From an uncultured Clostridia bacterium (GTDB taxonomy: Bacteria; Bacillota; Clostridia; TANB77; CAG-508): a DNA stretch of 37,940 bases. Of the stretch, positions 3,523 through 37,007 are shown piece by piece. A model generated the notes under the pieces. That model was not told the DNA's origin, made no database searches, and worked only from the letters and a program-made list of their open reading frames with translations. Location: NCBI GenBank assembly GCA_947628015.1, contig CANQYG010000003.1, positions 1-37,940 of the forward strand. The letters run 5' to 3'. The translations under genes and the position numbers were made by a program. The first letter of the stretch is position 1. Every line of letters begins with the position of its first letter.

Positions 3523-3549
3523 AATAAACAGAGCAATGCCCTGTTTATT
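3523..3549 (-). terminator. Intrinsic terminator overlapping the stop codon
   Basis: AATAAACAG-agcaatgcc-CTGTTTATT inverted repeat at the 3' end of the large surface-protein gene. Confidence 0.6.
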
Positions 3550-6500
3550 TTTTAGTTCTTTTATAAATAATTATTCCATTAAATATTAATATTATTATAA
3601 TCATAATTAATATAATCTGTGCTAAATTATTTTCTCCTGTTTTTGGTATTACATTTGTTGCTAATTTATCTTCATCTGGTTTATTTATCTCTTGTTCTTT
3701 CTTATTTGGTTCATCTTCACTTGGAGTGTCTATTTCTGGTTTATTCTCACTTGGTTTATTTGGATTTTCTATTTCTGGATTATCTTCTTCTGAATCATTT
3801 TCATCTGGTTCTTGTGTTCCTGGTGTGCTTGTTCCCGGTTCTTCAGTCTCTGGTATATTTGTTTCTGGTTCGTTTGTTCCCGGTGTATCTTCACTTGGTG
3901 TATCTGCTCCTGGTTCGTCTATTTCTGGTATATCTTCGCTTGGCTTATCTTCTTGTTTCATTTCTTCTAGCTCTACATCCATACTTGCAATTTCTAATTC
4001 ATTAAAAATATCATCATCTTTTTGATATGTTATAGTTTTTGTAACTGAATAATTTTCACTTTCTATTTTTAATTCATATTTTTTTCCATATTCTAATCCA
4101 TAGAAAATTACAACATTTTTATTACTATCATTTACACATATTGGCTCATCATTTCCATTTTCACTTATTTGTGCTTTTTCTGCTTTAACATTTATTCCGT
4201 CTATATAAGGCAATACTTGTAATTCATACTTATTTTCTATACCTACTTCTGTATCTCTTTCTAGTAATGGTAAAAGTGGTTTATAGTAATGATATGATAT
4301 TCCTAAATTTTCATAATTATATTTTTGCACAATATTATTTAATGTATCCATACATTGTTCTAATCCATCATTATAAAATGTATCTTCTTCTCCAACTGTT
4401 CCAAACTTTGGATCTTGTACTTCTGCTATTGATACTATATTTATATTATGTTTTTTTGCTATTTCTATTTCTTGATCCATATTTTCCATTATTGTTTCTT
4501 TAAAATAATTCATAAATGCTATATGGTCATAGTTATAGTTCATTAAGTCTTCTAACACTTCTTTTGATAATTTATCTAGCCATACTGGAAGTGCCATTGA
4601 ATATTTTAATCCTAGATTTTCTGCATAATCACAACATTTCTTTGTATTTTCTGTAAATTGCCTAAATAGTGCTAATGTTTTTTCTGTTTCTCCATTATTT
4701 GCCGCTTCTTGATATTCTTCTGTTAAATAAAATTCTACATCTAAGCTAACTCCTTTTAGCTTATAGTCTAATATCTTATTTAGCTCATTTGCCTCATCTA
4801 TTACTTCTAATACATTATTCATATCTCCTTCAGTTAGCCAGTCTCTTGCACCTTCTAACAAAAATACATCTAATTCATATTTTTTTGCAAATTCCATTAT
4901 TTCTTTTAATCTACTAATTTGTTTATCGTTAGCTGGTCTTTGAATATACAATGTATTTATTTCTAAATAATCTATTTCGTCTTTTAATTTTGATATATTA
5001 AAATCATCTATATCCCAGCAATATAGTGATACTATGTTTTTCTCACTTAATGATTTTTTTGTTGCAGATTTTACATCTAATATTTTGCTTATTTCTTCTG
5101 CTATTTTTTCTCCAAAATATTTATTTCCTTCGACTGACAAATGCACTCCGTCTTCAAGCACATATTTATCTGCATTTCCATCATTTTTAGGATTCCCCAT
5201 GTCTCCTGTTCCTGTAATATATCCTTCTTTTCCTATTGTTATTTGCTCGCCATATTTATCATATGTATCACCATTTAATAAGTCTATAAATGGTACTTCT
5301 TTTTCTTGTGCTTGCTCTTTTAATTGATTATTAATCTCTATTAAATCTTCTGGTACATTTTCATCTGGATAATATGCTCCTATTGTAATTATTTTTGCGT
5401 TTGTATAATCTTTTATATAGTCTATACATTTTTCTGCCTCTTTAATTACTTCTGGTGCTTTATAGCCACTCCAATAATCGTTTGGTCCTGCTTCTAAAAC
5501 TACTACATCTGGATTTAATTTTAATTGCTCTATTAATATTTCTAATCTATCAGAATATATATCATTTTTTCCACTTGTATCTGCTAAATATCCTGTTCCT
5601 CCAACTCCATTATTTATACATTCTAGATTTAAAATATTTGATGCAACATTTGGCCATGAATAGTATGCTGGAAGACTTCCTCCTCTTGTCATACTTGAAC
5701 CTACATACAATACTTTTGAATTACTTGGTCTTTCTATGGCTTTTATTTCATCTTGATTACTTATTCTAATTCCATTAAATACGCAATCTGTTAATTCTAC
5801 TTTAATGTTTCTTTGTTTCTTTTCATTAAATTCTACTTTATACCATACACCTTTAAATGTATCTGACTTACTTCCTGTCTCTTCTGTCGTTTGCTCTATT
5901 CCATCTTGATATGTTAATTCATATCCATTTCCTTCATCTACTAATATTCTAAATGATGTACATGTATTTACAAAAAACTCTTTACAATCAACTACAAATT
6001 CTACTGAATATAATTGTGGCCATTTACTTTCTTCTGAATATATACTGTTTTGACCTATTATTGAGTTTCTCCAAGAAACTGGCTCTAAGTTTGCATTATA
6101 TGATTTATATAATGGATTTACCTTTCCATCTTCTGTTTTTGGAGCATAAAAAGTTGTTGTTTCTTCTAAATTGTTTTCATCTTCTACTTTAGTAATTGAT
6201 GGTGGATTTTCCATTATCTTTTCTTGATAATCATATACAGAAGTATATTTATTATTTCCTTTTAATTCTATATCACCAAAAACATACCAATTATTTTCTG
6301 TTTTTCCTTCACTTCCTAGCAAGTATGTTGGATTTTGGTCTTCATCATTTTCATATAATCCTATGGCTAATTTATAATTTCCACTATCTACATTTTCAAA
6401 AGTAACTGTTGCATCATTTTTTGAAAGTGTATCTGGTTCCCACTCTTTAGGATCTATATCTGTTTTATATCTTTTTACTAGATTGTTATTTTGGTCTAAA

Positions 6501-7693
6501 AGACCAACATATACACTACACTTTTCGCTTATTGGTGTAATACCATCATTCTTAAATTCAAAAGACATTTGTGTTGGTACATTTGCCTCTATTTTCTCAT
6601 TATAAGTTACTTTTTTTAGTCTAAAATAATATCCAATTTTATTTGCTAACTCTTTGCAATATTCTTGATTTCCATCATTATACCAAGCTTTATCAAGTTC
6701 AATATATGATGGTTTTGCAATTTCAATTGCCTCTTCTAATTTTTTATTAAAATATTCTCTTCCACCATTTTCTTCATACTTTTCGTAATTACTAGCATAC
6801 TCATATATCATTGGAAGTTTTCCATAAGTTTTTGAGCAAGTTTCTAACCCATTTGTATATGTAATTATTCCATCTCTTCTTAATGAAACACCTTCATCTA
6901 TTAGTTCTTCATAAACATCATTAAATTTATCTTCTCCCCATGGAATAATTAATTGTGTATCTGGAAAAGCTTCCATATATGGTTTTATATATTTTTCTTT
7001 CAAAAATTCAGGCTCTACTCTATTTTCTTTAATATATTCTTGTATATCTATTTTTTCACCTGATTCATCAAAACCATTTAATCCAAATAAATGTTGTTCT
7101 CCATAATTTCCATAAGTCCTAATATCAATAAATGCAATATTAGGATCTCCATTATATTTTTCTCCTAATGCTTTAGTAAACTCATCTACATATTTTAAAA
7201 ATGTTTCATCCATCCAATCTGGAATATATTGCTTTCCATTAGTTCCACCTAAATTATATTTAGCACCTTTATCAAATACAAATTTTGGTGTAACATAAGG
7301 TTCTTCTGTTGATGTATTTGCACACATTACGCCAAAAGCAAATTTTTTATTATACTTTATACAATCTTTTATTCCTTCATCAATTAATGTAAAATCAAAT
7401 ACACCTTCTTCTTTTTGCAATTCTGACCAATCATATCTTGTGTAAAGTACATTAGATATGTCTAGCATTTCTTGTGAAAACCAATCAAATGTATATTTGT
7501 GCTCACTATCATAAGTTAATCTTCTTGCATAATAAACAAAACCCTTACCCGGATTTATTAAAACATCATTATTATCTTGTATTGTTTTTTCAACTATTTT
7601 CCCATCTTGTCCTACTACTCCAAAAACTTTTGTTACTGAAGAAGTTAACATTATTACTAAAACTAATAGTATAATTTCAATTTTTTTTAACAT
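3545..7693 (-). CDS. Large sortase-anchored multidomain carbohydrate-active protein (GH-A/GH42-like + DUF4832-like, SGNH hydrolase, second TIM-barrel-like domain)
   Basis: Signal peptide; NPGKG, W..LQKEEGVFDF, DIRTYGNYGEQH, IGYYFRL; SGNH blocks GSSMTRG / NNGVGGTGY / GPND / DGVH; LKGVSLDVEFY domain; P/E/T/D-rich linker; IPKTG + TM + KRTKK. Start is 7693 or 7717. Confidence 0.75.
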   Translation of the reverse strand: MLKKIEIILLVLVIMLTSSVTKVFGVVGQDGKIVEKTIQDNNDVLINPGKGFVYYARRLTYDSEHKYTFDWFSQEMLDISNVLYTRYDWSELQKEEGVFDFTLIDEGIKDCIKYNKKFAFGVMCANTSTEEPYVTPKFVFDKGAKYNLGGTNGKQYIPDWMDETFLKYVDEFTKALGEKYNGDPNIAFIDIRTYGNYGEQHLFGLNGFDESGEKIDIQEYIKENRVEPEFLKEKYIKPYMEAFPDTQLIIPWGEDKFNDVYEELIDEGVSLRRDGIITYTNGLETCSKTYGKLPMIYEYASNYEKYEENGGREYFNKKLEEAIEIAKPSYIELDKAWYNDGNQEYCKELANKIGYYFRLKKVTYNEKIEANVPTQMSFEFKNDGITPISEKCSVYVGLLDQNNNLVKRYKTDIDPKEWEPDTLSKNDATVTFENVDSGNYKLAIGLYENDEDQNPTYLLGSEGKTENNWYVFGDIELKGNNKYTSVYDYQEKIMENPPSITKVEDENNLEETTTFYAPKTEDGKVNPLYKSYNANLEPVSWRNSIIGQNSIYSEESKWPQLYSVEFVVDCKEFFVNTCTSFRILVDEGNGYELTYQDGIEQTTEETGSKSDTFKGVWYKVEFNEKKQRNIKVELTDCVFNGIRISNQDEIKAIERPSNSKVLYVGSSMTRGGSLPAYYSWPNVASNILNLECINNGVGGTGYLADTSGKNDIYSDRLEILIEQLKLNPDVVVLEAGPNDYWSGYKAPEVIKEAEKCIDYIKDYTNAKIITIGAYYPDENVPEDLIEINNQLKEQAQEKEVPFIDLLNGDTYDKYGEQITIGKEGYITGTGDMGNPKNDGNADKYVLEDGVHLSVEGNKYFGEKIAEEISKILDVKSATKKSLSEKNIVSLYCWDIDDFNISKLKDEIDYLEINTLYIQRPANDKQISRLKEIMEFAKKYELDVFLLEGARDWLTEGDMNNVLEVIDEANELNKILDYKLKGVSLDVEFYLTEEYQEAANNGETEKTLALFRQFTENTKKCCDYAENLGLKYSMALPVWLDKLSKEVLEDLMNYNYDHIAFMNYFKETIMENMDQEIEIAKKHNINIVSIAEVQDPKFGTVGEEDTFYNDGLEQCMDTLNNIVQKYNYENLGISYHYYKPLLPLLERDTEVGIENKYELQVLPYIDGINVKAEKAQISENGNDEPICVNDSNKNVVIFYGLEYGKKYELKIESENYSVTKTITYQKDDDIFNELEIASMDVELEEMKQEDKPSEDIPEIDEPGADTPSEDTPGTNEPETNIPETEEPGTSTPGTQEPDENDSEEDNPEIENPNKPSENKPEIDTPSEDEPNKKEQEINKPDEDKLATNVIPKTGENNLAQIILIMIIIILIFNGIIIYKRTKK
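3700..3950 (-). repeat. Low-complexity Pro/Glu/Thr/Asp linker with degenerate PSED-x-P and EPGT repeats
   Basis: DKPSEDIP, DTPSEDTP, DTPSEDEP, NKPSENKP and (T/E)PGT units in the protein; recurring tcttc(a/g)cttgg in the DNA. Confidence 0.7.
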
Positions 7694-7752
7694 TTTTGCA
7701 CTATATCTCCTTACCATTTTTACTTGTGATATATTTTACTCTTATACTATGT

Positions 7753-15685: not shown

Positions 15686-16732
15686 TTAAATATTAACTTT
15701 TGCTTTTTTCAAATCTTTTGAATAATAATACATATCAACACATTTTAAATCTCTATCCCATATTTCTTCTTCATAGTTATCTATAAAGTAATTTTTTATT
15801 GTCTTCTCATATTTATCAAAGCCTTGTTTTACATAGAAGGGAATATTATTCTCTGATGTTCCCACTAACATCTTATCATATTTTTGTTTATAGTTGCCAC
15901 ATAGGGATTTTAATAACTTTTTAGCATAACCTTTTCCTCTATATTCTTTTTTAGTAACTAGATTTTTTAGTTCTAATGTTTTATTATCAATGTGCAAAAT
16001 AACAGCTAATGAAACTATATTTTCTTCCACTTGTAATCCATAAACATCAGAGTCGCTTAAATACTTGTTAATACTTGCTTTTGATGGATTTGCCTCTAAT
16101 AATAAATCAATGTAGTCGTTTTTATTCTCTATTCTTTTTACACATAAAGACCATCTTCTTGTGTCCTCAAAGCCTTCTGGTAATACTGGTTTTGGTGGAT
16201 TGGGGTTATTATATCTACTTTCCTCCGAGAAAATACACCCACAGTATTTTTGCATATATAAACCTAACTCTTTTGCTTTATTATGACCTTTCCAAAAACC
16301 TTCTCTAAAGTCTCTATATAAAAATTCTATTCCATATTCTTTACTTAACTTTTCCATATAATTTTTTATAAAGTCATGTTTTTGATAGATACTATACAGT
16401 AATGTTGTCGATACTGCATCATATCCATTTTCTTTAGCATATTCAAATGTTTTTCTTAATCTTACTGGATAGCAATAATTTACGCACCTATTATTTAAGT
16501 CTTTTACCGCTTCTTTGCAAAAATTATCTAGTCCATATTCTTCTTCAAATATTGCTTTTACATCTATACTTTTACTATACTCTTTTAAGCAATCTCTTCT
16601 TGCTTTATATTCTGTGTATGGATGAATATTAGGATTATACCAATACAATGTTGGTTCTATTCCTTCTTCTCTTAATTTATCTATACAATACACACTACAA
16701 GGTGCACAACATGTATGTAATAATAATTTCAT
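15686..16732 (-). CDS. queH: Epoxyqueuosine reductase QueH fused to a C-terminal GNAT acetyltransferase
   Basis: LLHTCCAPCS, YNPNIHPYTEY, RC..CY..RL, TTLLYS, LYMQKYCGCIFS; then LLLEANPS, ELKNL, EYRGKGYAKKLL, FYVKQGF (GNAT motif A). Confidence 0.88.
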   Translation of the reverse strand: MKLLLHTCCAPCSVYCIDKLREEGIEPTLYWYNPNIHPYTEYKARRDCLKEYSKSIDVKAIFEEEYGLDNFCKEAVKDLNNRCVNYCYPVRLRKTFEYAKENGYDAVSTTLLYSIYQKHDFIKNYMEKLSKEYGIEFLYRDFREGFWKGHNKAKELGLYMQKYCGCIFSEESRYNNPNPPKPVLPEGFEDTRRWSLCVKRIENKNDYIDLLLEANPSKASINKYLSDSDVYGLQVEENIVSLAVILHIDNKTLELKNLVTKKEYRGKGYAKKLLKSLCGNYKQKYDKMLVGTSENNIPFYVKQGFDKYEKTIKNYFIDNYEEEIWDRDLKCVDMYYYSKDLKKAKVNI

Positions 16733-30859: not shown

Positions 30860-31633
30860 TTATAATTCTTCTGCAAATCTCTTTTGTAATTTATTAAATA
30901 TTGCATATCCAATAAGTACAACTAATATTCCAATTGCAATTATAACAAAAATACTTTTCATATTAGGCATTTGTTGATAATAAAATATGTCTCTATACCC
31001 TTCTATAATGTGAGTCATTGGATTTATATTTAATATCCATCTAAATCTTTCTGGTATTGTATCTATTGAATATACTATTGGAGTTCCATAAAAAAGTAAT
31101 TGTAAAAATACTCCAATAAAATGTTGCAAGTCTCTAAAATATACTGTTACACAAGATACTATCAATGAAATTCCTATTAAAATAATATATTGTGCAAGTA
31201 ATAAAAGTGGATAAAATAATATAAGTGTTGAGATTCCTACTCCTGTTATTAATACAAATCCAATTATTATTACTGTTGATATTAAAAATGTAATTGTTTC
31301 ACTTGTTACTAAAGAAATCGGCAAAATTTCTCTTGGGAAATATACTTTTTTAATAATATTTCCATTTTCAATCATAACACCGGCTGACCTATTTATAACA
31401 CTTGCAAAATATGTCCAAGGAATAAGTCCACATACCATAAATACTGTGTAATTTTCTATATTATTTCTCATAATTAGTGGAAATACAATAGCATATACAC
31501 ATATTTGAAGTAGTGGATTTATAAATGACCATATAACTCCTAAAAATGAATTTTTATATTTTCCACCTATGTCTTTTTTTATACTTGTTTTTAACAGTTC
31601 CCTATATTGATATAATCTTTTAAAAATACTCAT
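30860..31633 (-). CDS. wzm: Polysaccharide ABC exporter permease (Wzm/TagG/RgpC-like)
   Basis: KYKNSFLGVIWSFINPL, KKVYFPREILP, YFRDLQH, TPIVY, NPM, FAEEL. Confidence 0.92.
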   Translation of the reverse strand: MSIFKRLYQYRELLKTSIKKDIGGKYKNSFLGVIWSFINPLLQICVYAIVFPLIMRNNIENYTVFMVCGLIPWTYFASVINRSAGVMIENGNIIKKVYFPREILPISLVTSETITFLISTVIIIGFVLITGVGISTLILFYPLLLLAQYIILIGISLIVSCVTVYFRDLQHFIGVFLQLLFYGTPIVYSIDTIPERFRWILNINPMTHIIEGYRDIFYYQQMPNMKSIFVIIAIGILVVLIGYAIFNKLQKRFAEEL

Positions 31634-31692
31634 CTATGTTTCCTTTCAAATTTAGACATTTTTTTATTCTAATTATAGCTTTTTTTCATAAG

Positions 31693-32430
31693 CTAAGTTG
31701 TTTGTTTTATATATTCATCTATTACTTCGTTTGTATCTCCATCCATCTGAATTATACCTTTATTTAGCCATACTGCTCTGTCGCATAGCTCTCTTGCAGA
31801 TTCTAAACTATGAGTAACAAAAACCATAGTTTTGCCTTCTTTTTTTAGTTCCTTCATTTTGTTAATACATTTTTCTTGAAAATGTTGGTCTCCAACAGAT
31901 AATATTTCATCAACAAGTAAAATCTCTGCATCAACATTTATAGCAACAGAAAACGCAAGCCTCATATACATACCTGATGAATATGTTCTAACTGGGTTAT
32001 CTATATAACTTCCAAGCTCAGAAAACTCAATTATTTGGTCTAGCCTTTTGTCAATTTCTTTTCTTGTTAGTCCAAATATTGAAGCATTAAAATATATATT
32101 TTCTCTTCCAGAAAAATCTGGGTGAAAACCTGCTCCAAGCTCTAAAAGTGATGTTAACTTTCCATTGGTAACTATCTTTCCTTTATTAGGATATATAATT
32201 TTAGTCATTAATTTTAAAAGAGTTGACTTTCCGCTTCCGTTTACTCCAATAAGAGCAACAGCTTCACCATTTTTTATCGTTAAATTTATATCTTTTAATA
32301 CTTCTCTTGTTTCTTTTCTGTTTCTCTTCCAAAATAAAAGCTTTTCTTTTATGCTATTTGCTTTGTCTAAATATACATTAAAAGTTTTGTAAACATGTTC
32401 TACAATAATTCTGTTTTCTTTACCTTGCAT
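31693..32430 (-). CDS. wzt: Polysaccharide ABC exporter ATPase (Wzt/TagH/RgpD-like), without a C-terminal carbohydrate-binding domain
   Basis: GVNGSGKSTLL, LELGAGFHP, YSSGMYMRLAFS, LLVDE, VTH; start ATG 32430 after GAAAGG. Confidence 0.93.
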   Translation of the reverse strand: MQGKENRIIVEHVYKTFNVYLDKANSIKEKLLFWKRNRKETREVLKDINLTIKNGEAVALIGVNGSGKSTLLKLMTKIIYPNKGKIVTNGKLTSLLELGAGFHPDFSGRENIYFNASIFGLTRKEIDKRLDQIIEFSELGSYIDNPVRTYSSGMYMRLAFSVAINVDAEILLVDEILSVGDQHFQEKCINKMKELKKEGKTMVFVTHSLESARELCDRAVWLNKGIIQMDGDTNEVIDEYIKQTT

Positions 32431-32446
32431 AATCTTAAACCTTTCT

Positions 32447-33376
32447 TTAATAACCTTCATCCATAAAATCGTTTGTTACTTTTTTTCTCTTGAAGTTCTT
32501 TCTAGTAAGAATTGAAATAGGAATCCATAAAAATATTATCATTATTTTATTAAAGCTACCTTTTACATTTTTAATTGCATCACTTCTTGCTGATAAAATT
32601 GCAAACATTATGTAATATTTGTATATATACATCTTTTTGCTAAAAGGTATTCCTTTTAAATTCATCTTTAAAATTTCTTTAAAATATTCGTAAAAACCTA
32701 AAGGAGCTAGTTCAAAAACTCTTTTTTTATTTTTTACATAGCCATCATCTTTGTAGTCTCCAATAATTATTGCCTCATTTACGCAAATTACATCATAGTC
32801 TGCATCAATTTTGTTATACATTCTAAACTCTGTAACAAACTTTTCATCTGCCTCTAATATGTGCTTGTATTTTTTTCTAATCTCTGTTTTATAAACTAGT
32901 ATTTTTTCTCCTGTCATTTTTTCTTTGTAATATAAGCTAAACATATCACTTCTATGATTGTCTTCTATAAATTCTGTTCCATCAATTTTTCCACTTTCAT
33001 TTTTCTTCAAAAAAGCAAGTGCATATACTGTTTCATCACTTAATAGCTTGTCTATGTTTTTGTTAATAATATCAAATGCGCCAGTTACAAAGTAATCATC
33101 TGAATCACATTCTATTATTACATCTCCTGTAACAAATTTCATTAAGTTGTTAATTGCTGACATTTTTCCTTGATTTTCTTGGTAGTGATATTCTATTTTA
33201 ATTATGTTTTGTTTAATAAAATTATCTATAATTAATTTAGTTTTATCAGTAGAACCATCATCCATAATGAGCCATTCATATTCTATGTTAGAATTACTAT
33301 TGATAACTAAACTTGTATATAATCTTTCTAAATCATGCGCTCTATTATATGTAGCTGTTAGTATTGAAATCTTCAT
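32447..33376 (-). CDS. GT2 glycosyltransferase
   Basis: ILTATYNR, DDGSTD, ENQGK, CDSDD. Confidence 0.9.
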   Translation of the reverse strand: MKISILTATYNRAHDLERLYTSLVINSNSNIEYEWLIMDDGSTDKTKLIIDNFIKQNIIKIEYHYQENQGKMSAINNLMKFVTGDVIIECDSDDYFVTGAFDIINKNIDKLLSDETVYALAFLKKNESGKIDGTEFIEDNHRSDMFSLYYKEKMTGEKILVYKTEIRKKYKHILEADEKFVTEFRMYNKIDADYDVICVNEAIIIGDYKDDGYVKNKKRVFELAPLGFYEYFKEILKMNLKGIPFSKKMYIYKYYIMFAILSARSDAIKNVKGSFNKIMIIFLWIPISILTRKNFKRKKVTNDFMDEGY

Positions 33377-33402
33377 TAAAAGTCTGTTTCCTTAATTTGA
33401 TT

Positions 33403-33468
33403 ATTTAGGTTTTTAAAGGTTACCCATAAACCTTTACATATAATATCATAAATTACTATTATAAACAA
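33403..33468 (-). promoter_or_regulatory. Promoter plus conserved leader motif, copy 1
   Basis: TTGTTT (33468-33463)-17 nt-TATTAT (33445-33440) with extended -10 TG, then AAAGGTTTATGGGTAACCTTTAAAAACCTAAAT; near-identical copy at 36458-36547. Confidence 0.7.
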
Positions 33469-33491
33469 TAATTTGATTATATTTTAATTTT

Positions 33492-34455
33492 TTAATACGG
33501 ACTTCTAATATGTGTTAATAGTTTTAGTACTCTATAATTTTCATTGCATACTAAGTTGCAAAATAGTTTGAATAATAGTGGTTTATTTTTATAATATTCA
33601 TTGTTTTTCCAGTTTGGAAATTTTATATTCACTTCTTCTGCACATTTTTTTATATCTTCATATTTATTAAATTTTAAAAATTTAAAACTTGAAAAATATA
33701 TAAGTTGGAAAATGTATAAATATTCAATTTCCTTTTTAAATTCTGTATCTTTTAGCTTTTCATATAAATAATTGCAAGCTTTGATAATGTCTAAAAATTT
33801 TTTATTATATTCTATTTTTTGCATTGTAGAATTTTCTCTTTGTCTATAAAAATATAACTCTTCATTAATATATCCAATCTTTTTTGTGTACTTTGGCATT
33901 GCTGGTATTATTGCAAAATCTTCATATAAAATATCTTCTGGAAATTCAATTTTTTCATTTATCCATATATCTCTTTTATAAATTTTATTTACAGGACCGT
34001 GGGTTTGACAATATATATGTTGAATAATTAAATTCTTTTAAAAATCTAGGTAATGTCTCCCTTGACTCTTTTCTTCCATCTTCATAAACCCAAGCCATAT
34101 CACAAACTACAACGTCTAACTTCTTTTTTATTCCTTCATTATATAAAATTTCATACATATCATTTTCAATGTAATCATCTGAATCTACAAAGCCTATATA
34201 TTCTCCACTTGCCTTTTTTACACCATAATTTCTAGCTGAACCTTGTCCACCATTTTCTTTTATATAACTTTTAAATAATTCAGGATATTTTTCTACATAT
34301 TCATCAATAATATTTTGACTTTTATCTTTAGAGCCATCATTTACTATAATTACTTCTAAATCATCTTTAATTGTTTGATTTACCAACGAATCAAGACATT
34401 CTCTTAAATATTCTTGAACATTATATACTGGAATAATAACGCTTACCTTTGGCAT
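33492..34455 (-). CDS. GT2 glycosyltransferase, split by a +1 frameshift at CGG-T (33999-33996)
   Basis: VIIPVYN, NDGSKD, NGGQGSARN, FVDSDD; skipping one base gives ..SNP-G-PVNKIYKRDIW...FPEDIFYED.. and a 320-aa product like the 319- and 314-aa neighbouring paralogues. Confidence 0.88.
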
Positions 34456-34470
34456 AAATTTACCCTTTCT

Positions 34471-35430
34471 TTATTTTATTAATCCAAAAATTTTGCAATA
34501 AATTTTATAAGTATATTTATTTACTTTTTTCATGTAAAAATCTTTTAAAGATTTTCTTTTTTTCAATATTTCATTTTGTCTCCAATTAGGAAATTTTTCA
34601 TTTAAGTTTTTCCAAGTTTCATATAATATTTTTTCTTTTAGCTTTTTATCTTTTATTTTTGCAACCCTTTTTAAAGAACTGCAAAGTAAATATCTTGTGT
34701 ATACATATTCTAGCTCCATTTTATATTCATCATAAATTTGGTTTGATTTATAATAATTTAAAACATTGTCAAGTACTGAAAAGATATCTCTTGTTTTCTC
34801 ATTGTATTCATACGAAACTGAAGACTTTCTTTGCACATAATGTACTAATGGTTCTTTTATAAATGAAACTTTATCACAATAAGGTACTAATTTATATGTA
34901 AACTCTACATCTTCATATCTAAGCCCTTTTGGAAAATATATTTTATTTGATTGTACTACCATTCTTTTAATCATTTTGTTCCAAGGAATTACTCTGGCAT
35001 ATAAAAGCATTTCTTTTTTATTTGCATAAATAGCGCCTGTATCTAGCTTTTTCTTGTGTGGATATTCCCAATAAAAATCACATTCAACAATACTGCTATT
35101 TTCTTCTTTTGCTTTATTATACATTTTTTCATACATATTAGGCTCTGCATAATCATCTGCATCTAAAAAAGCTATGTACTCTCCTGTAGCATAAGGTATT
35201 GCATAATTTCTTGCATCAGCCGCTCCACCATTTTCTTTTTCTAGATATTTTATTTTATCTTTGTACTGTTCTTCATACTTTTTTATTATTTCCTTTGAGC
35301 CGTCTTTTGAGCCATCATTTACTATTATAATTTCTATATCTTGTAAAGTTTGATTTAATAAAGATTCTAAACTTTTTTCGATATAATTTTCTGCATTAAA
35401 AACAGGCATTATAATACTAACCTTTACCAT
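34471..35430 (-). CDS. GT2 glycosyltransferase
   Basis: IIMPVFN, NDGSKD, NGGAADARN, FLDADD, PWNKMIKR, FPKGLRYED. Confidence 0.93.
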   Translation of the reverse strand: MVKVSIIMPVFNAENYIEKSLESLLNQTLQDIEIIIVNDGSKDGSKEIIKKYEEQYKDKIKYLEKENGGAADARNYAIPYATGEYIAFLDADDYAEPNMYEKMYNKAKEENSSIVECDFYWEYPHKKKLDTGAIYANKKEMLLYARVIPWNKMIKRMVVQSNKIYFPKGLRYEDVEFTYKLVPYCDKVSFIKEPLVHYVQRKSSVSYEYNEKTRDIFSVLDNVLNYYKSNQIYDEYKMELEYVYTRYLLCSSLKRVAKIKDKKLKEKILYETWKNLNEKFPNWRQNEILKKRKSLKDFYMKKVNKYTYKIYCKIFGLIK

Positions 35431-35490
35431 ATAAAATTTCCTTTCTAAATTTGTATGCTATAATATTCTTTATCTTATTTTAAATAAACT

Positions 35491-36435
35491 TTATCTTAGT
35501 TTCAAATACCAATTTATATTAATATTTAAAAGTAACTTTTTTAAGAGCTGTTTAAGATTTCTTGCTTTTATATTTTTCAACATTTTTCTTCTTTTTATCT
35601 CTTTTATATAAAGCTTTCTATCTTCTCCTTCAAGTTCTTCAACTTTTAAAATAATATTATTTGTGTAGTATATTTTTATATTTTCTTTTGTTTTTTTCGC
35701 TAAATCTATATTTTTTATTTCTTCTTCCATAGCAGTATAATGTTCTAACATATCCATTGCTCTTTTAAGAGTTTTTTCTTTGTCATTTCCTCTAGTTATG
35801 CTCTCGTTTGACTGGTAATAATAATATCCATAAATATCTGTTGAAGTAATACTTTTGGCTTTTACCATAAGAAGAACAGTTGTTGCAAAATCTTCGTGAT
35901 ATTTTCCTACTGGATATTTAAAATTATTTTCATCTAAAAAAGATTTTTTGTATAAATAAAGCCACGCTGGTTGAAGCATTATATCTGTACTATATAAAGT
36001 ATTAAAAGCATCTTCTCCCATTAGCTCATCAAAAGTAGGACCATCTATTTTTTCTATTTCTTTGTAGTTCTCATCTACCTTTATCATTTTATATTTTATC
36101 ATATCTATTTGCAATAAAATGTATTTTTCAAGCTTTTCAAATAAACTTGTATCTATATAATCATCAGAATCTACAAAACATATATAATCTCCACTTGCTT
36201 TTTCTAAGCCATAGTTTCTTGCATCTGATAATCCACCATTTTCTTTAATATAGCTTTTTATGTTAGAATATTCTTTTACATATTCATCAATTATATCTTG
36301 GCTTTTGTCTTTTGATCCATCATTTACTACTATTATTTCTATATCCTTTAATGTTTGATTAACTATTGAATTAAGACATTTACCTATTGTATTTTCTACA
36401 TTATAAACAGGAACTATTACACTTATTTTTGTCAT
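35491..36435 (-). CDS. GT2 glycosyltransferase
   Basis: VIVPVYN, NDGSKD, NGGLSDARN, FVDSDD, YPVGKYHED. Confidence 0.93.
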   Translation of the reverse strand: MTKISVIVPVYNVENTIGKCLNSIVNQTLKDIEIIVVNDGSKDKSQDIIDEYVKEYSNIKSYIKENGGLSDARNYGLEKASGDYICFVDSDDYIDTSLFEKLEKYILLQIDMIKYKMIKVDENYKEIEKIDGPTFDELMGEDAFNTLYSTDIMLQPAWLYLYKKSFLDENNFKYPVGKYHEDFATTVLLMVKAKSITSTDIYGYYYYQSNESITRGNDKEKTLKRAMDMLEHYTAMEEEIKNIDLAKKTKENIKIYYTNNIILKVEELEGEDRKLYIKEIKRRKMLKNIKARNLKQLLKKLLLNININWYLKLR

Positions 36436-36457
36436 ATTAAAATTTATTCCTTTATAA

Positions 36458-36547
36458 TATTTAGGTTTTTTAAGGACTTACCTATAAACCTTTTATAGCT
36501 TCATTTTTAATTATGCATATAATATCACATAATCCCACTATAAACAA
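36458..36547 (-). promoter_or_regulatory. Promoter plus conserved leader motif, copy 2
   Basis: TTGTTT (36547-36542)-17 nt-TATTAT (36524-36519) with extended -10 TG, then AAAAGGTTTATAGGTAAGTCCTTAAAAAACCTAAAT ahead of the RBS of the first GT2. Confidence 0.7.
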
Positions 36548-36694
36548 CAATTTAATTAATTTTTTATATCAATTAATGCTTGGTGCAGAATAATTTGTAA
36601 ACATAATTTGTATAAAAATTTTATTTGCTTTCCATAATATATTTCAAATTATTTTTTATGTATTTTTTCGTTCTTGTAAAATCACTATTTAAAG

Positions 36695-37007
36695 TTATTC
36701 ACAGAGTTATCCACATTATCCACAGCCTAAAATGTGATTTTATTTTTGCAATTCAATTCTACATAATGTCTTATATTATTACAAATTTGTAAACCTATTA
36801 TTTCGTTTTTGTAATATTTTACAAATTTTTATTTTACTGTTTTTCTTGATTTTTCTTTATTTTTAAGCTTTTTTCTGTTTATCAAATTTATTACTATACA
36901 TTTTTACTTTTTTGCGTTTTTTTTACACTAATATTTCAAACTATCTATTTTTACTTAATTTTTTTAGTTTACATTTTAAAAAAGTTATCCACATTTTTTG
37001 TGAATAA
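36695..37007. promoter_or_regulatory. DnaA-box cluster (5 boxes)
   Basis: TTATTCACA 36695-36703, TTATCCACA 36707-36715, 36716-36724 and 36985-36993, and inverted TGTGAATAA 36999-37007; all match TTATNCACA. Confidence 0.8.

Follow-up and report, generated by a model that had tools for sequence, protein, structure and literature searches.

Our analysis of a 37,940-nt stretch of DNA from an uncultured Clostridia bacterium ("the window") reveals that two leaders in it, each upstream of a GT2-family glycosyltransferase gene, are copies of a lineage-specific, dispersed cassette of ~60 nt. The cassette is a structured, multi-copy leader for which neither a matching Rfam family nor, in full-text searching of the literature, a published description was found. 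It comprises an H-type pseudoknot (stem P1, loop-to-tail helix P2, and A-rich linker L3), an AU-rich spacer, and a Shine-Dalgarno sequence (SD), and it has RNA-level structure, a fixed orientation and spacing relative to the start codon, a generic association with genes, a lineage restriction, and a quick turnover. We tentatively propose, with a probability of roughly 45%, that the cassette folds on itself to form a 5′ boundary of the translation initiation region, acting in cis and with no specific metabolite required.

The two copies in the window are laid out as follows.

33436/33437-33488 (-): AT-rich block upstream of copy 1, containing TTGTTT-17-TATTAT, with a counterpart at copy 2
33468-33463 and 33445-33440 (-): hexamers TTGTTT and TATTAT upstream of copy 1, separated by a 17-nt spacer and followed by ATGT
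33406-33435 (-): whole knot of copy 1 (hairpin and pairing tail), before a GT2 gene
33429-33435 (-): P1 5′ strand of copy 1, AAAGGUU, read from the sequence, with covariation of the two G-C pairs in the family
33422-33428 (-): hairpin loop of copy 1, UAUGGGU, in which UGGGU (33426-33422) is the P2 5′ strand
33415-33421 (-): P1 3′ strand of copy 1, AACCUUU; the P1 hairpin is the centroid fold
33414-33411 (-): L3 of copy 1, AAAA
33410-33406 (-): P2 3′ strand of copy 1, ACCUA
33394-33405 (-): AU-rich 12-nt spacer between knot and SD of copy 1, AAUAAUCAAAUU, assigned by length and partial conservation across copies
33393-33389 (-): SD of copy 1, AAGGA
33376-33374 (-): start codon ATG of the GT2-family gene 32447-33376
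30860-33376 (-): genes downstream of copy 1, by Pfam: GT2 (32447-33376), ABC ATPase (31693-32460), and ABC-2 permease (30860-31633)
36516-36567 (-): counterpart of the upstream block at copy 2, with a 21-nt insert between block and knot
36462-36492 (-): pseudoknot of copy 2, with loop UUUAUAGGUAAGU and L3 AAAAA
36492-36489 with 36475-36472 (-): P1 of copy 2, AAGG/CCUU, four pairs
36484-36480 and 36466-36462 (-): P2 of copy 2, loop UAGGU and tail ACCUA
36433-36461 (-): spacer, SD AAGGA (36452-36448), and ATG (36435-36433) of copy 2, before the GT2 gene 35491-36435
33492-36435 (-): genes downstream of copy 2: GT2 (35491-36435), GT2 (34471-35430), and a split GT2 (33985-34455 and 33492-33899)

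On direct reading, the ACCUA tail of copy 1 is complementary to its loop UGGGU, and the stem with loop-to-tail pairing that the initial annotation had described is present at this locus. Its second observation, that the loop of copy 2 reads UAGGU and replaces a G-U pair by an A-U pair with pairing preserved, is likewise borne out. A 2-nt GU insertion in copy 2 shortens P1 to AAGG/CCUU. The 30-mer of copy 1 has 0.00 expected matches in shuffled sequence, and copy 2 is the top own-genome match of our covariance model R1 (61.4 bits). The upstream blocks of the two copies extend over 52 nt with 79% identity, and a BLAST search of the rest of the genome returned no comparable match to this block. 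The block of copy 1 may be a promoter; the hexamers and the spacing on which the initial annotation had called a TTGTTT-17-TATTAT promoter are present, and the promoter itself is not established, TTGTTT matching TTGACA at 3/6 positions. In particular, the hexamer pair is absent from the output of a consensus promoter scan, and the 28 promoter-like sites in 33300-36800, against a shuffle mean of 30.6, amount to no enrichment in this 26%-GC DNA. No terminator-like sites were detected in the same interval.

Three further features of the window were observed. First, the split GT2 paralogue at 33492-34455 (-) comprises a 156-aa ORF (33985-34455) that carries the GT2 domain and a 135-aa ORF (33492-33899) that has no Pfam match and resembles the 3′ halves of the full-length GT2 genes 34471-35430 and 35491-36435; it is probably a broken gene between the two leader copies. 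Second, a short frame starts at the AUG within the loop in copies that read UAUGGG there, with AAAGG just 3 nt upstream: in copy 1 (33426-33400, -) the frame reads AUG GGU AAC CUU UAA, 4 codons, and in TAACCTTTTA variants it comprises 7 codons and stops at the UAA of CCUAAAU. This frame is probably meaningless, because the majority of copies read AUA instead. Third, a 1390-aa protein encoded at 3545-7717 (-) has a signal-like N-terminus, proline/glutamate-rich repeats, and, at the C-terminus, IPKTG and then a hydrophobic tail, an arrangement, as read from the translation, like that of sortase-anchored surface proteins.

Comparison of the copies defines a consensus, the 5′ part of which is (A)AA-GG-UUUAU-[U-R-G-G-U]-A-L2 (total 3 or 5 nt)-CC-(U/A-rich, 2-15 nt)-AAAA-[A-C-C-U-A], and the 3′ part of which, after ACCUA, is AAU-AUAUUAUAC-AAGGA-about 7 nt-start. 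Almost no variation is seen in L1 (UUUAU), in the A-run of L3, or in the AAAU that follows the knot, and L2 varies among copies in both length and sequence (counts in 155 copies: TAAAT, 24; TAA, 23; TAAAA, 21; TAT, 8; TAAAG, 8; TAG, 6; TAC, 2; TAAAC, 1). Conservation has a sharp upstream edge: across 159 copies, three A-rich positions precede GG and nothing is conserved beyond position -3. At the other end, conservation declines 3′ of the SD. The SD lies 11-13 nt past the knot, behind the AU-rich spacer, with a peak 13-17 nt after CCUA, and the distance from the knot end (CCUA) to the start codon is 22-30 nt in 111 of the 130 copies for which a start was found, the start-finder having returned no start for 34 further copies. 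In one relative, L3 of one copy (L183:483-563, -) is interrupted by 35 nt of inserted, partly palindromic sequence (GAAAATATTTTC) that separates the A-run from the P1 3′ strand, and the covariance model splits this copy into two weak matches.

Both helices of the H-type pseudoknot are supported by compensatory changes. Among 111 model-aligned copies, most of which come from pattern searches that fix GG and CCUA and all of which stand in an alignment fitted to a P1-containing model, P2 is 98.7% paired and the whole pseudoknot has 85.2% of cells paired. Double-sided changes occur in 44 cells, compared with 25.3 ± 3.5 in shuffled alignments (0/500 shuffles reach 44); the covariation score is 0.129 compared with 0.100; and slid controls drop to 11-51% pairing. 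Because the searches fix GG and CCUA and the model contains P1, the variants found by the model are the telling cases. Specifically, P2 is found as UAGA/UCUA at six loci in four genomes, and also as UAGU/ACUA, UGGG/CCCA, UGGG/UCCA, UGAG/CUCA (two pairs co-changed), and UAGGC/GCCUA (twice), while the GG/CC of P1 is found as AG/CU at nine loci, as GA/UC at two, and as UG/CA at one. For the first C of CC, the partner is G (GC, 108; AU, 2). The covariation check on collected leaders that the initial annotation had proposed thus comes out in favour of both helices.

Since the element contains two GG and two CC, a nested fold is conceivable. We considered GGUUU:AAACC combined with AGG:CCU, for which 94.8% of cells are pairable, and rejected it as the structure under selection: it has 0 double changes, and every variant listed above breaks it. 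The outer AAA/UUU pairs of P1 are weak, with a mean helix of 4.0 compared with 3.81 ± 0.08 when strands are randomly re-paired and with mixed per-position tables, and nested folding energies are ordinary (z of -0.4 to +0.8). Because the outer A-U pairs are barely above chance and the nested energies unremarkable, we take the core to be a short P1 stacked on a P2 of 4-5 bp with an A-rich L3.

A degenerate pattern derived from the two window copies matches 53/201 genomes of the same family, representing 21/50 genera; a reversed control pattern matches 0/201. The own genome, a metagenome-assembled genome (MAG) of 1.55 Mb in 161 contigs and 83% complete, contains 25 copies (20 found by the pattern, and 5 diverged but complete copies found by covariance model R1), and two relatives contain 61 and 35 covariance-model matches. 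Across the order of uncultured gut Clostridia to which the family belongs, 52/151 genomes have matches (39/52, 10/33, 2/52, 0/9, and 0/4 genomes by family), in a scan that scored 42 candidates per genome, so that per-genome copy counts from it are to be read as "at least". Outside the order, 0/145 genomes of Clostridia have a match at E <= 1e-4, a result that doubles as a specificity control. A scan with one genome per species yielded at least 120 loci, and, among the matches listed, all are in uncultured Clostridia-type or other Bacillota MAGs or in genomes labelled uncultured bacterium (e.g., Clostridium sp. CAG:492 and CAG:389). Certain species of carrier genera have zero copies, indicating that the element is dispensable.

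The genes that follow the element are diverse. Pfam scans of 119 downstream proteins and one operon identified translation and RNA genes, namely MetS (2), PheS (2), PheT, HisS, ThrS, ProS, ArgS, GltX, an Asp/Lys-type synthetase, GatB, NusA, RimP, a release factor, YchF, an RlmB-type protein, and Dus; envelope and secretion genes, namely SecA (2), FtsY, FtsW (2), MurC, a PBP, FemAB, TagF, several GT2 proteins, UppS, and CdsA; and others, including SufB/SufS, CdaA/DisA, many sporulation genes (SpoIIAB, SpoIIIAB, SpoVAC, SpoVAD, GerAC, SleB, and YpeB), surface proteins, transporters, and proteins without known function. In low-copy genomes (22 matches in 10 genomes) the downstream genes also differ (they include dodecin, HIT, CdaA, DUF1294, signal peptidase, TatD, FtsY, ArgS, Dus, and a MacB-type permease), and there is no "home" gene. 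The initial annotation had regarded the leader as peculiar to GT2 and wzt/wzm genes; the same type of element precedes more than 100 unrelated genes. The presence of one element before dozens of unrelated genes indicates a general gene-expression module rather than a sensor for sugar-chain genes.

The element is found in operons, at contig ends, and in phages. In the own genome, 16/25 copies begin between -5 and +21 nt from the stop codon of the upstream gene, such that the element fills the intercistronic gap, and in one relative's fab/acc operon 6/9 genes carry individual copies. Such proximity to an upstream stop codon does not hold in general: in a wider set, a stop lies within 80 nt for 48/99 copies, at distances spread from -9 to 80. 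Seven viral contigs carry the element; the next gene matches phage HTH-type regulators (2), a DNA methyltransferase (one gene, two contigs), or families without known function (2), and for the remaining contig (1) no downstream gene was found. In one subfamily, several copies per genome are identical over ~50-110 nt, lie at contig ends, and follow a block with inverted repeats ACTGTGG...CCACAGT; by its sequence, the block looks like an invertible promoter switch. The conserved inverted-repeat block ACTGTGG...CCACAGTGTTAAC is seen ~40-110 nt upstream of the element at L082, L110, and L201. Assembly breaks occur at the element: in the own genome, uppS ends one contig (C124) and the element with cdsA starts another (C25), and in relatives several contigs (L202-L204, L206-L210) begin 8-35 nt before identical copies. 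A search for T-boxes and other known leaders near 20 motif loci found one T-box and nothing else. This T-box (L009:1970-2197, -; 119.9 bits) is in one relative and precedes its pheS copy by ~430 nt, with an ORF between the two whose stop codon overlaps the P1 5′ strand.

The reading we propose is that the compact, probably triple-stranded knot would mark the 5′ edge of the ribosome landing site. Upstream RNA would be packed away by the knot and kept from pairing into the ribosome-binding site, and, where the knot lies at a transcript start or at a processed 5′ end, RNase J-type 5′-to-3′ decay would be blocked, such that each carrying cistron would be translated and stabilised on its own terms. 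5′ mRNA stabilisers are established in Bacillus, as described in passages of PMC3997798, and RNase J and RNase Y genes are encoded in the genome, making the decay step plausible. Four observations weigh against the cis-acting boundary. By partition-function folding, genes with the motif show no gain in predicted SD accessibility over other genes (0.59 vs 0.55, p = 0.45, n = 13 vs 400); the nested folding energies are ordinary; the near-invariant L1, A-run, and AAAU are unneeded by a plain barrier and fit a bound ligand or protein at least as well; and the element is dispensable, with zero copies in some species of the same genus.

The last but one of these observations leads to a competing reading, which we consider somewhat unlikely: the knot would be the receptor of one ligand, or of one lineage-specific RNA-binding protein or sRNA, by which ~1-4% of genes would be co-regulated at translation. 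Loop and tail nucleotides are nearly invariant and stems covary, as in aptamers and protein operators. The preQ1-I riboswitch is the nearest structural relative; its P1 ends in GG followed by UU, and its loop UAG pairs with the tail CUA. The present element shares with it the GGUU start, the UAG/CUA pairing, and the A-run. It further shares the H-type topology, the A-rich L3, and the size of ~34 nt, this being the fold of the smallest known riboswitch, as described in passages of PMC11625349, and REP2 of Neisseria, reported in passages of PMC3184786, is a precedent for a dispersed RBS-carrying repeat by which a set of co-regulated genes is defined. The resemblance to preQ1-I is real and may stem either from shared ancestry or from convergent evolution towards a stable, very small fold.

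The preQ1-I-like architecture noted in the initial annotation stands as H-type topology (P1, loop-to-tail P2, A-rich L3) and falls as membership of the preQ1 family. Rfam at gathering thresholds returned 0 matches in the whole window; PreQ1 at E <= 10 had no match in 33300-33560 (261 nt); and a whole-genome search with RF00522 gave a best score of 15.8 bits (cut-off 39), at none of the motif copies, so the suggested Rfam check for PreQ1 was negative for the window and for every copy in the own genome. According to passages of PMC11625349, preQ1-I invariably has UC or AC directly before the P1 3′ strand, and this cytosine reads the ligand; here nearly every copy has A, U, or G at that position. 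Of the 119 downstream proteins, none belongs to queuosine synthesis or transport. We accordingly rejected the preQ1-I riboswitch RF00522 as an identification, there being no Rfam match, no specificity cytosine, and no link to queuosine genes. The element also differs from preQ1-I in that its SD is outside P2, 11-13 nt beyond, and in that genomes have 25-61 copies, not one or two. A 348-aa protein encoded in the window at 15686-16732 (-) combines an epoxyqueuosine reductase QueH domain (residues 3-171) with a GNAT acetyltransferase domain; the organism thus handles queuosine, yet its genome contains no PreQ1 riboswitch above the cut-off.

Several further results bear on the receptor reading. 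The downstream genes, which range from tRNA synthetase, fab, and cell-wall genes to secretion, sporulation, surface, and phage genes, have no common metabolic theme, and no shared pathway that would point to a ligand was found among them. We found no competing pairing by which the SD could be gated; predicted folds leave the SD largely open, and the SD lies beyond P2 by the distance given above. The translational switch postulated initially, with CCUU pairing to the SD, lacks support on two counts: the P1 3′ strand is CCA, not CCU, in 46/155 copies, and SD accessibility is ordinary. A 16S rRNA for a complementarity check is absent from this MAG. L2, which carries the specificity base in preQ1-I, is variable in length and sequence here; membership of the gene set shifts even within a genus; and no candidate partner was identified. 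An extended form, in which the knot would be the shared receptor of a translation-level regulon of 1-4% of genes that recruits members by self-copying, we consider unlikely.

The element does not keep its positions from genome to genome. It lies between uppS and cdsA and ahead of ftsW in the own genome, and none of five same-genus genomes has it at either locus (0/5 and 0/5); at the pheS loci of the family it is present at 1/30. In two species with a PheS 84-85% identical to a carrier's, the element is absent there, and the intergenic stretch, similar in length, may be a G-to-A decayed copy. Copy number ranges from 0 to 61 within one genus, and low-copy genomes share only two loci, solely between two close species of one genus. 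A metagenome scan with CdsA gave 8 loci, none of them close (<=70% identity over part of the protein). The motif is thus not kept in orthologous leaders, so that the conservation expected at the outset is found not locus by locus but as covariation across the family as a whole. Because its positions differ among related genomes, the element behaves as a spreading leader cassette; with positions unconserved and copy number variable, it is gained and lost quickly, and its pairings are kept once it is in place.

This turnover could also be that of a selfish or neutral dispersed repeat, which would spread as DNA or via an RNA intermediate, with a structure that serves propagation, and which would be tolerated for its working SD. 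We regard this as improbable, even though, beyond the variable copy number and the unconserved positions, some genomes contain several identical copies at which assemblies break and one relative's site resembles a G-to-A decayed copy. All inspected copies point at a start codon at a fixed distance, and the loop-to-tail pairing is maintained by compensatory change, which points to selection on a folded single strand in the mRNA sense. Known mobile elements were tried and rejected. Specifically, the logo of 159 copies has sharp ends and lacks the terminal inverted repeats of a MITE, as well as extended conserved flanks; and an REP/RAYT or IS200-IS605 derivative is disfavoured by the Y1 transposase (PF01797), which is present in 5/5 genomes having 61, 35, 1, 0, and 0 copies. 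Reverse transcriptase genes, present in all 5 genomes tested, do not track copy number either, such that both gene types occur at 61 or 0 copies alike.

The fixed distance between knot and SD raises the question of a pause or processing signal, which we consider quite improbable. In the pause form, the knot would stabilise an RNA polymerase pause ~11-13 nt downstream, at the SD, and thereby time ribosome loading; in the cut form, it would direct an intercistronic endonuclease cut of the RNase Y, RNase III, or RNase P type. Passages of PMC11625349 describe pseudoknot-stabilised pausing for the preQ1-I riboswitch of Bacillus and suggest that such pausing is more widespread, many copies of the present element are intercistronic, and RNase Y is present; however, the fixed spacing is perhaps merely inherited with the cassette. 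Finally, a preQ1-I-derived switch dedicated to glycosyltransferase and polysaccharide-export genes and sensing a nucleotide or nucleotide-sugar is extremely improbable: both window copies do precede GT2 genes, and GT2 or TagF genes recur downstream elsewhere, but glycosyltransferases are a small minority of the more than 100 downstream genes, RF00522 matches no copy, the specificity cytosine is missing, and nothing was found that points to the nucleotide-sugar ligand suggested initially.

The element has the hallmarks of a dispersed RBS-carrying repeat: it occurs in many copies, lies adjacent to ORFs, and contains an internal ribosome-binding site. In this it resembles Neisseria REP2 and Borrelia IR-A/IR-B, which passages of PMC3184786 describe as dispersed, intergenic, located directly upstream of ORFs, and containing an RBS and stem-loops. 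According to the same passages, REP2 and IR-A/IR-B are 120-150 bp long and contain a promoter and an ATG, with no pseudoknot or covariation reported there, whereas the present element is ~60 nt, is often intercistronic, and lies behind a shared promoter-like block in one subfamily only. MIRU (mycobacterial interspersed repetitive units) and REP/BIME sequences are likewise short repeats in operons; passages of PMC3184786 state that MIRUs abut adjacent genes with their ends and that the stability of mRNA can be influenced by REPs. MIRUs differ in having small ORFs inside and in occurring in tandem, and REPs in being G+C-rich palindromes often located between convergent genes; unlike the present element, neither has a fixed distance to the next start or a pseudoknot. 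Firmicute 5′ stabilisers (the ermC stall site and hbs-type strong-RBS leaders) protect messages from 5′-dependent decay (PMC3997798 and PMC5737220), the function that the present element would share if our reading is correct; they are single-gene elements that act via bound ribosomes or simple hairpins, with no multi-copy pseudoknot family described.

If the cis-acting boundary is correct, one portable, structured RNA module supplies many of the translation start regions in a whole lineage of uncultured gut Clostridia, at gene junctions within essential operons, downstream of switchable promoters, and in phages. The element would be a natural counterpart of the insulator and RBS parts of synthetic biology and would help in annotating or engineering these organisms. 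It also serves as a warning for riboswitch hunting, in that a covarying, preQ1-I-like small pseudoknot need not sense a metabolite, and it breaks metagenome assemblies. If a common ligand or protein is bound, the copies would constitute a new and unusually large post-transcriptional regulon; in particular, a protein-binding leader, as the initial annotation had envisaged for glycopolymer synthesis, would be genome-wide rather than glycopolymer-specific. Were the knot a shared receptor that recruits genes by self-copying, the regulon would span essential operons, phase-variable surface genes, and prophage regulators, and the element would represent a new class of global riboswitch or operator and, at the same time, a mobile ribosome-binding-site cassette.
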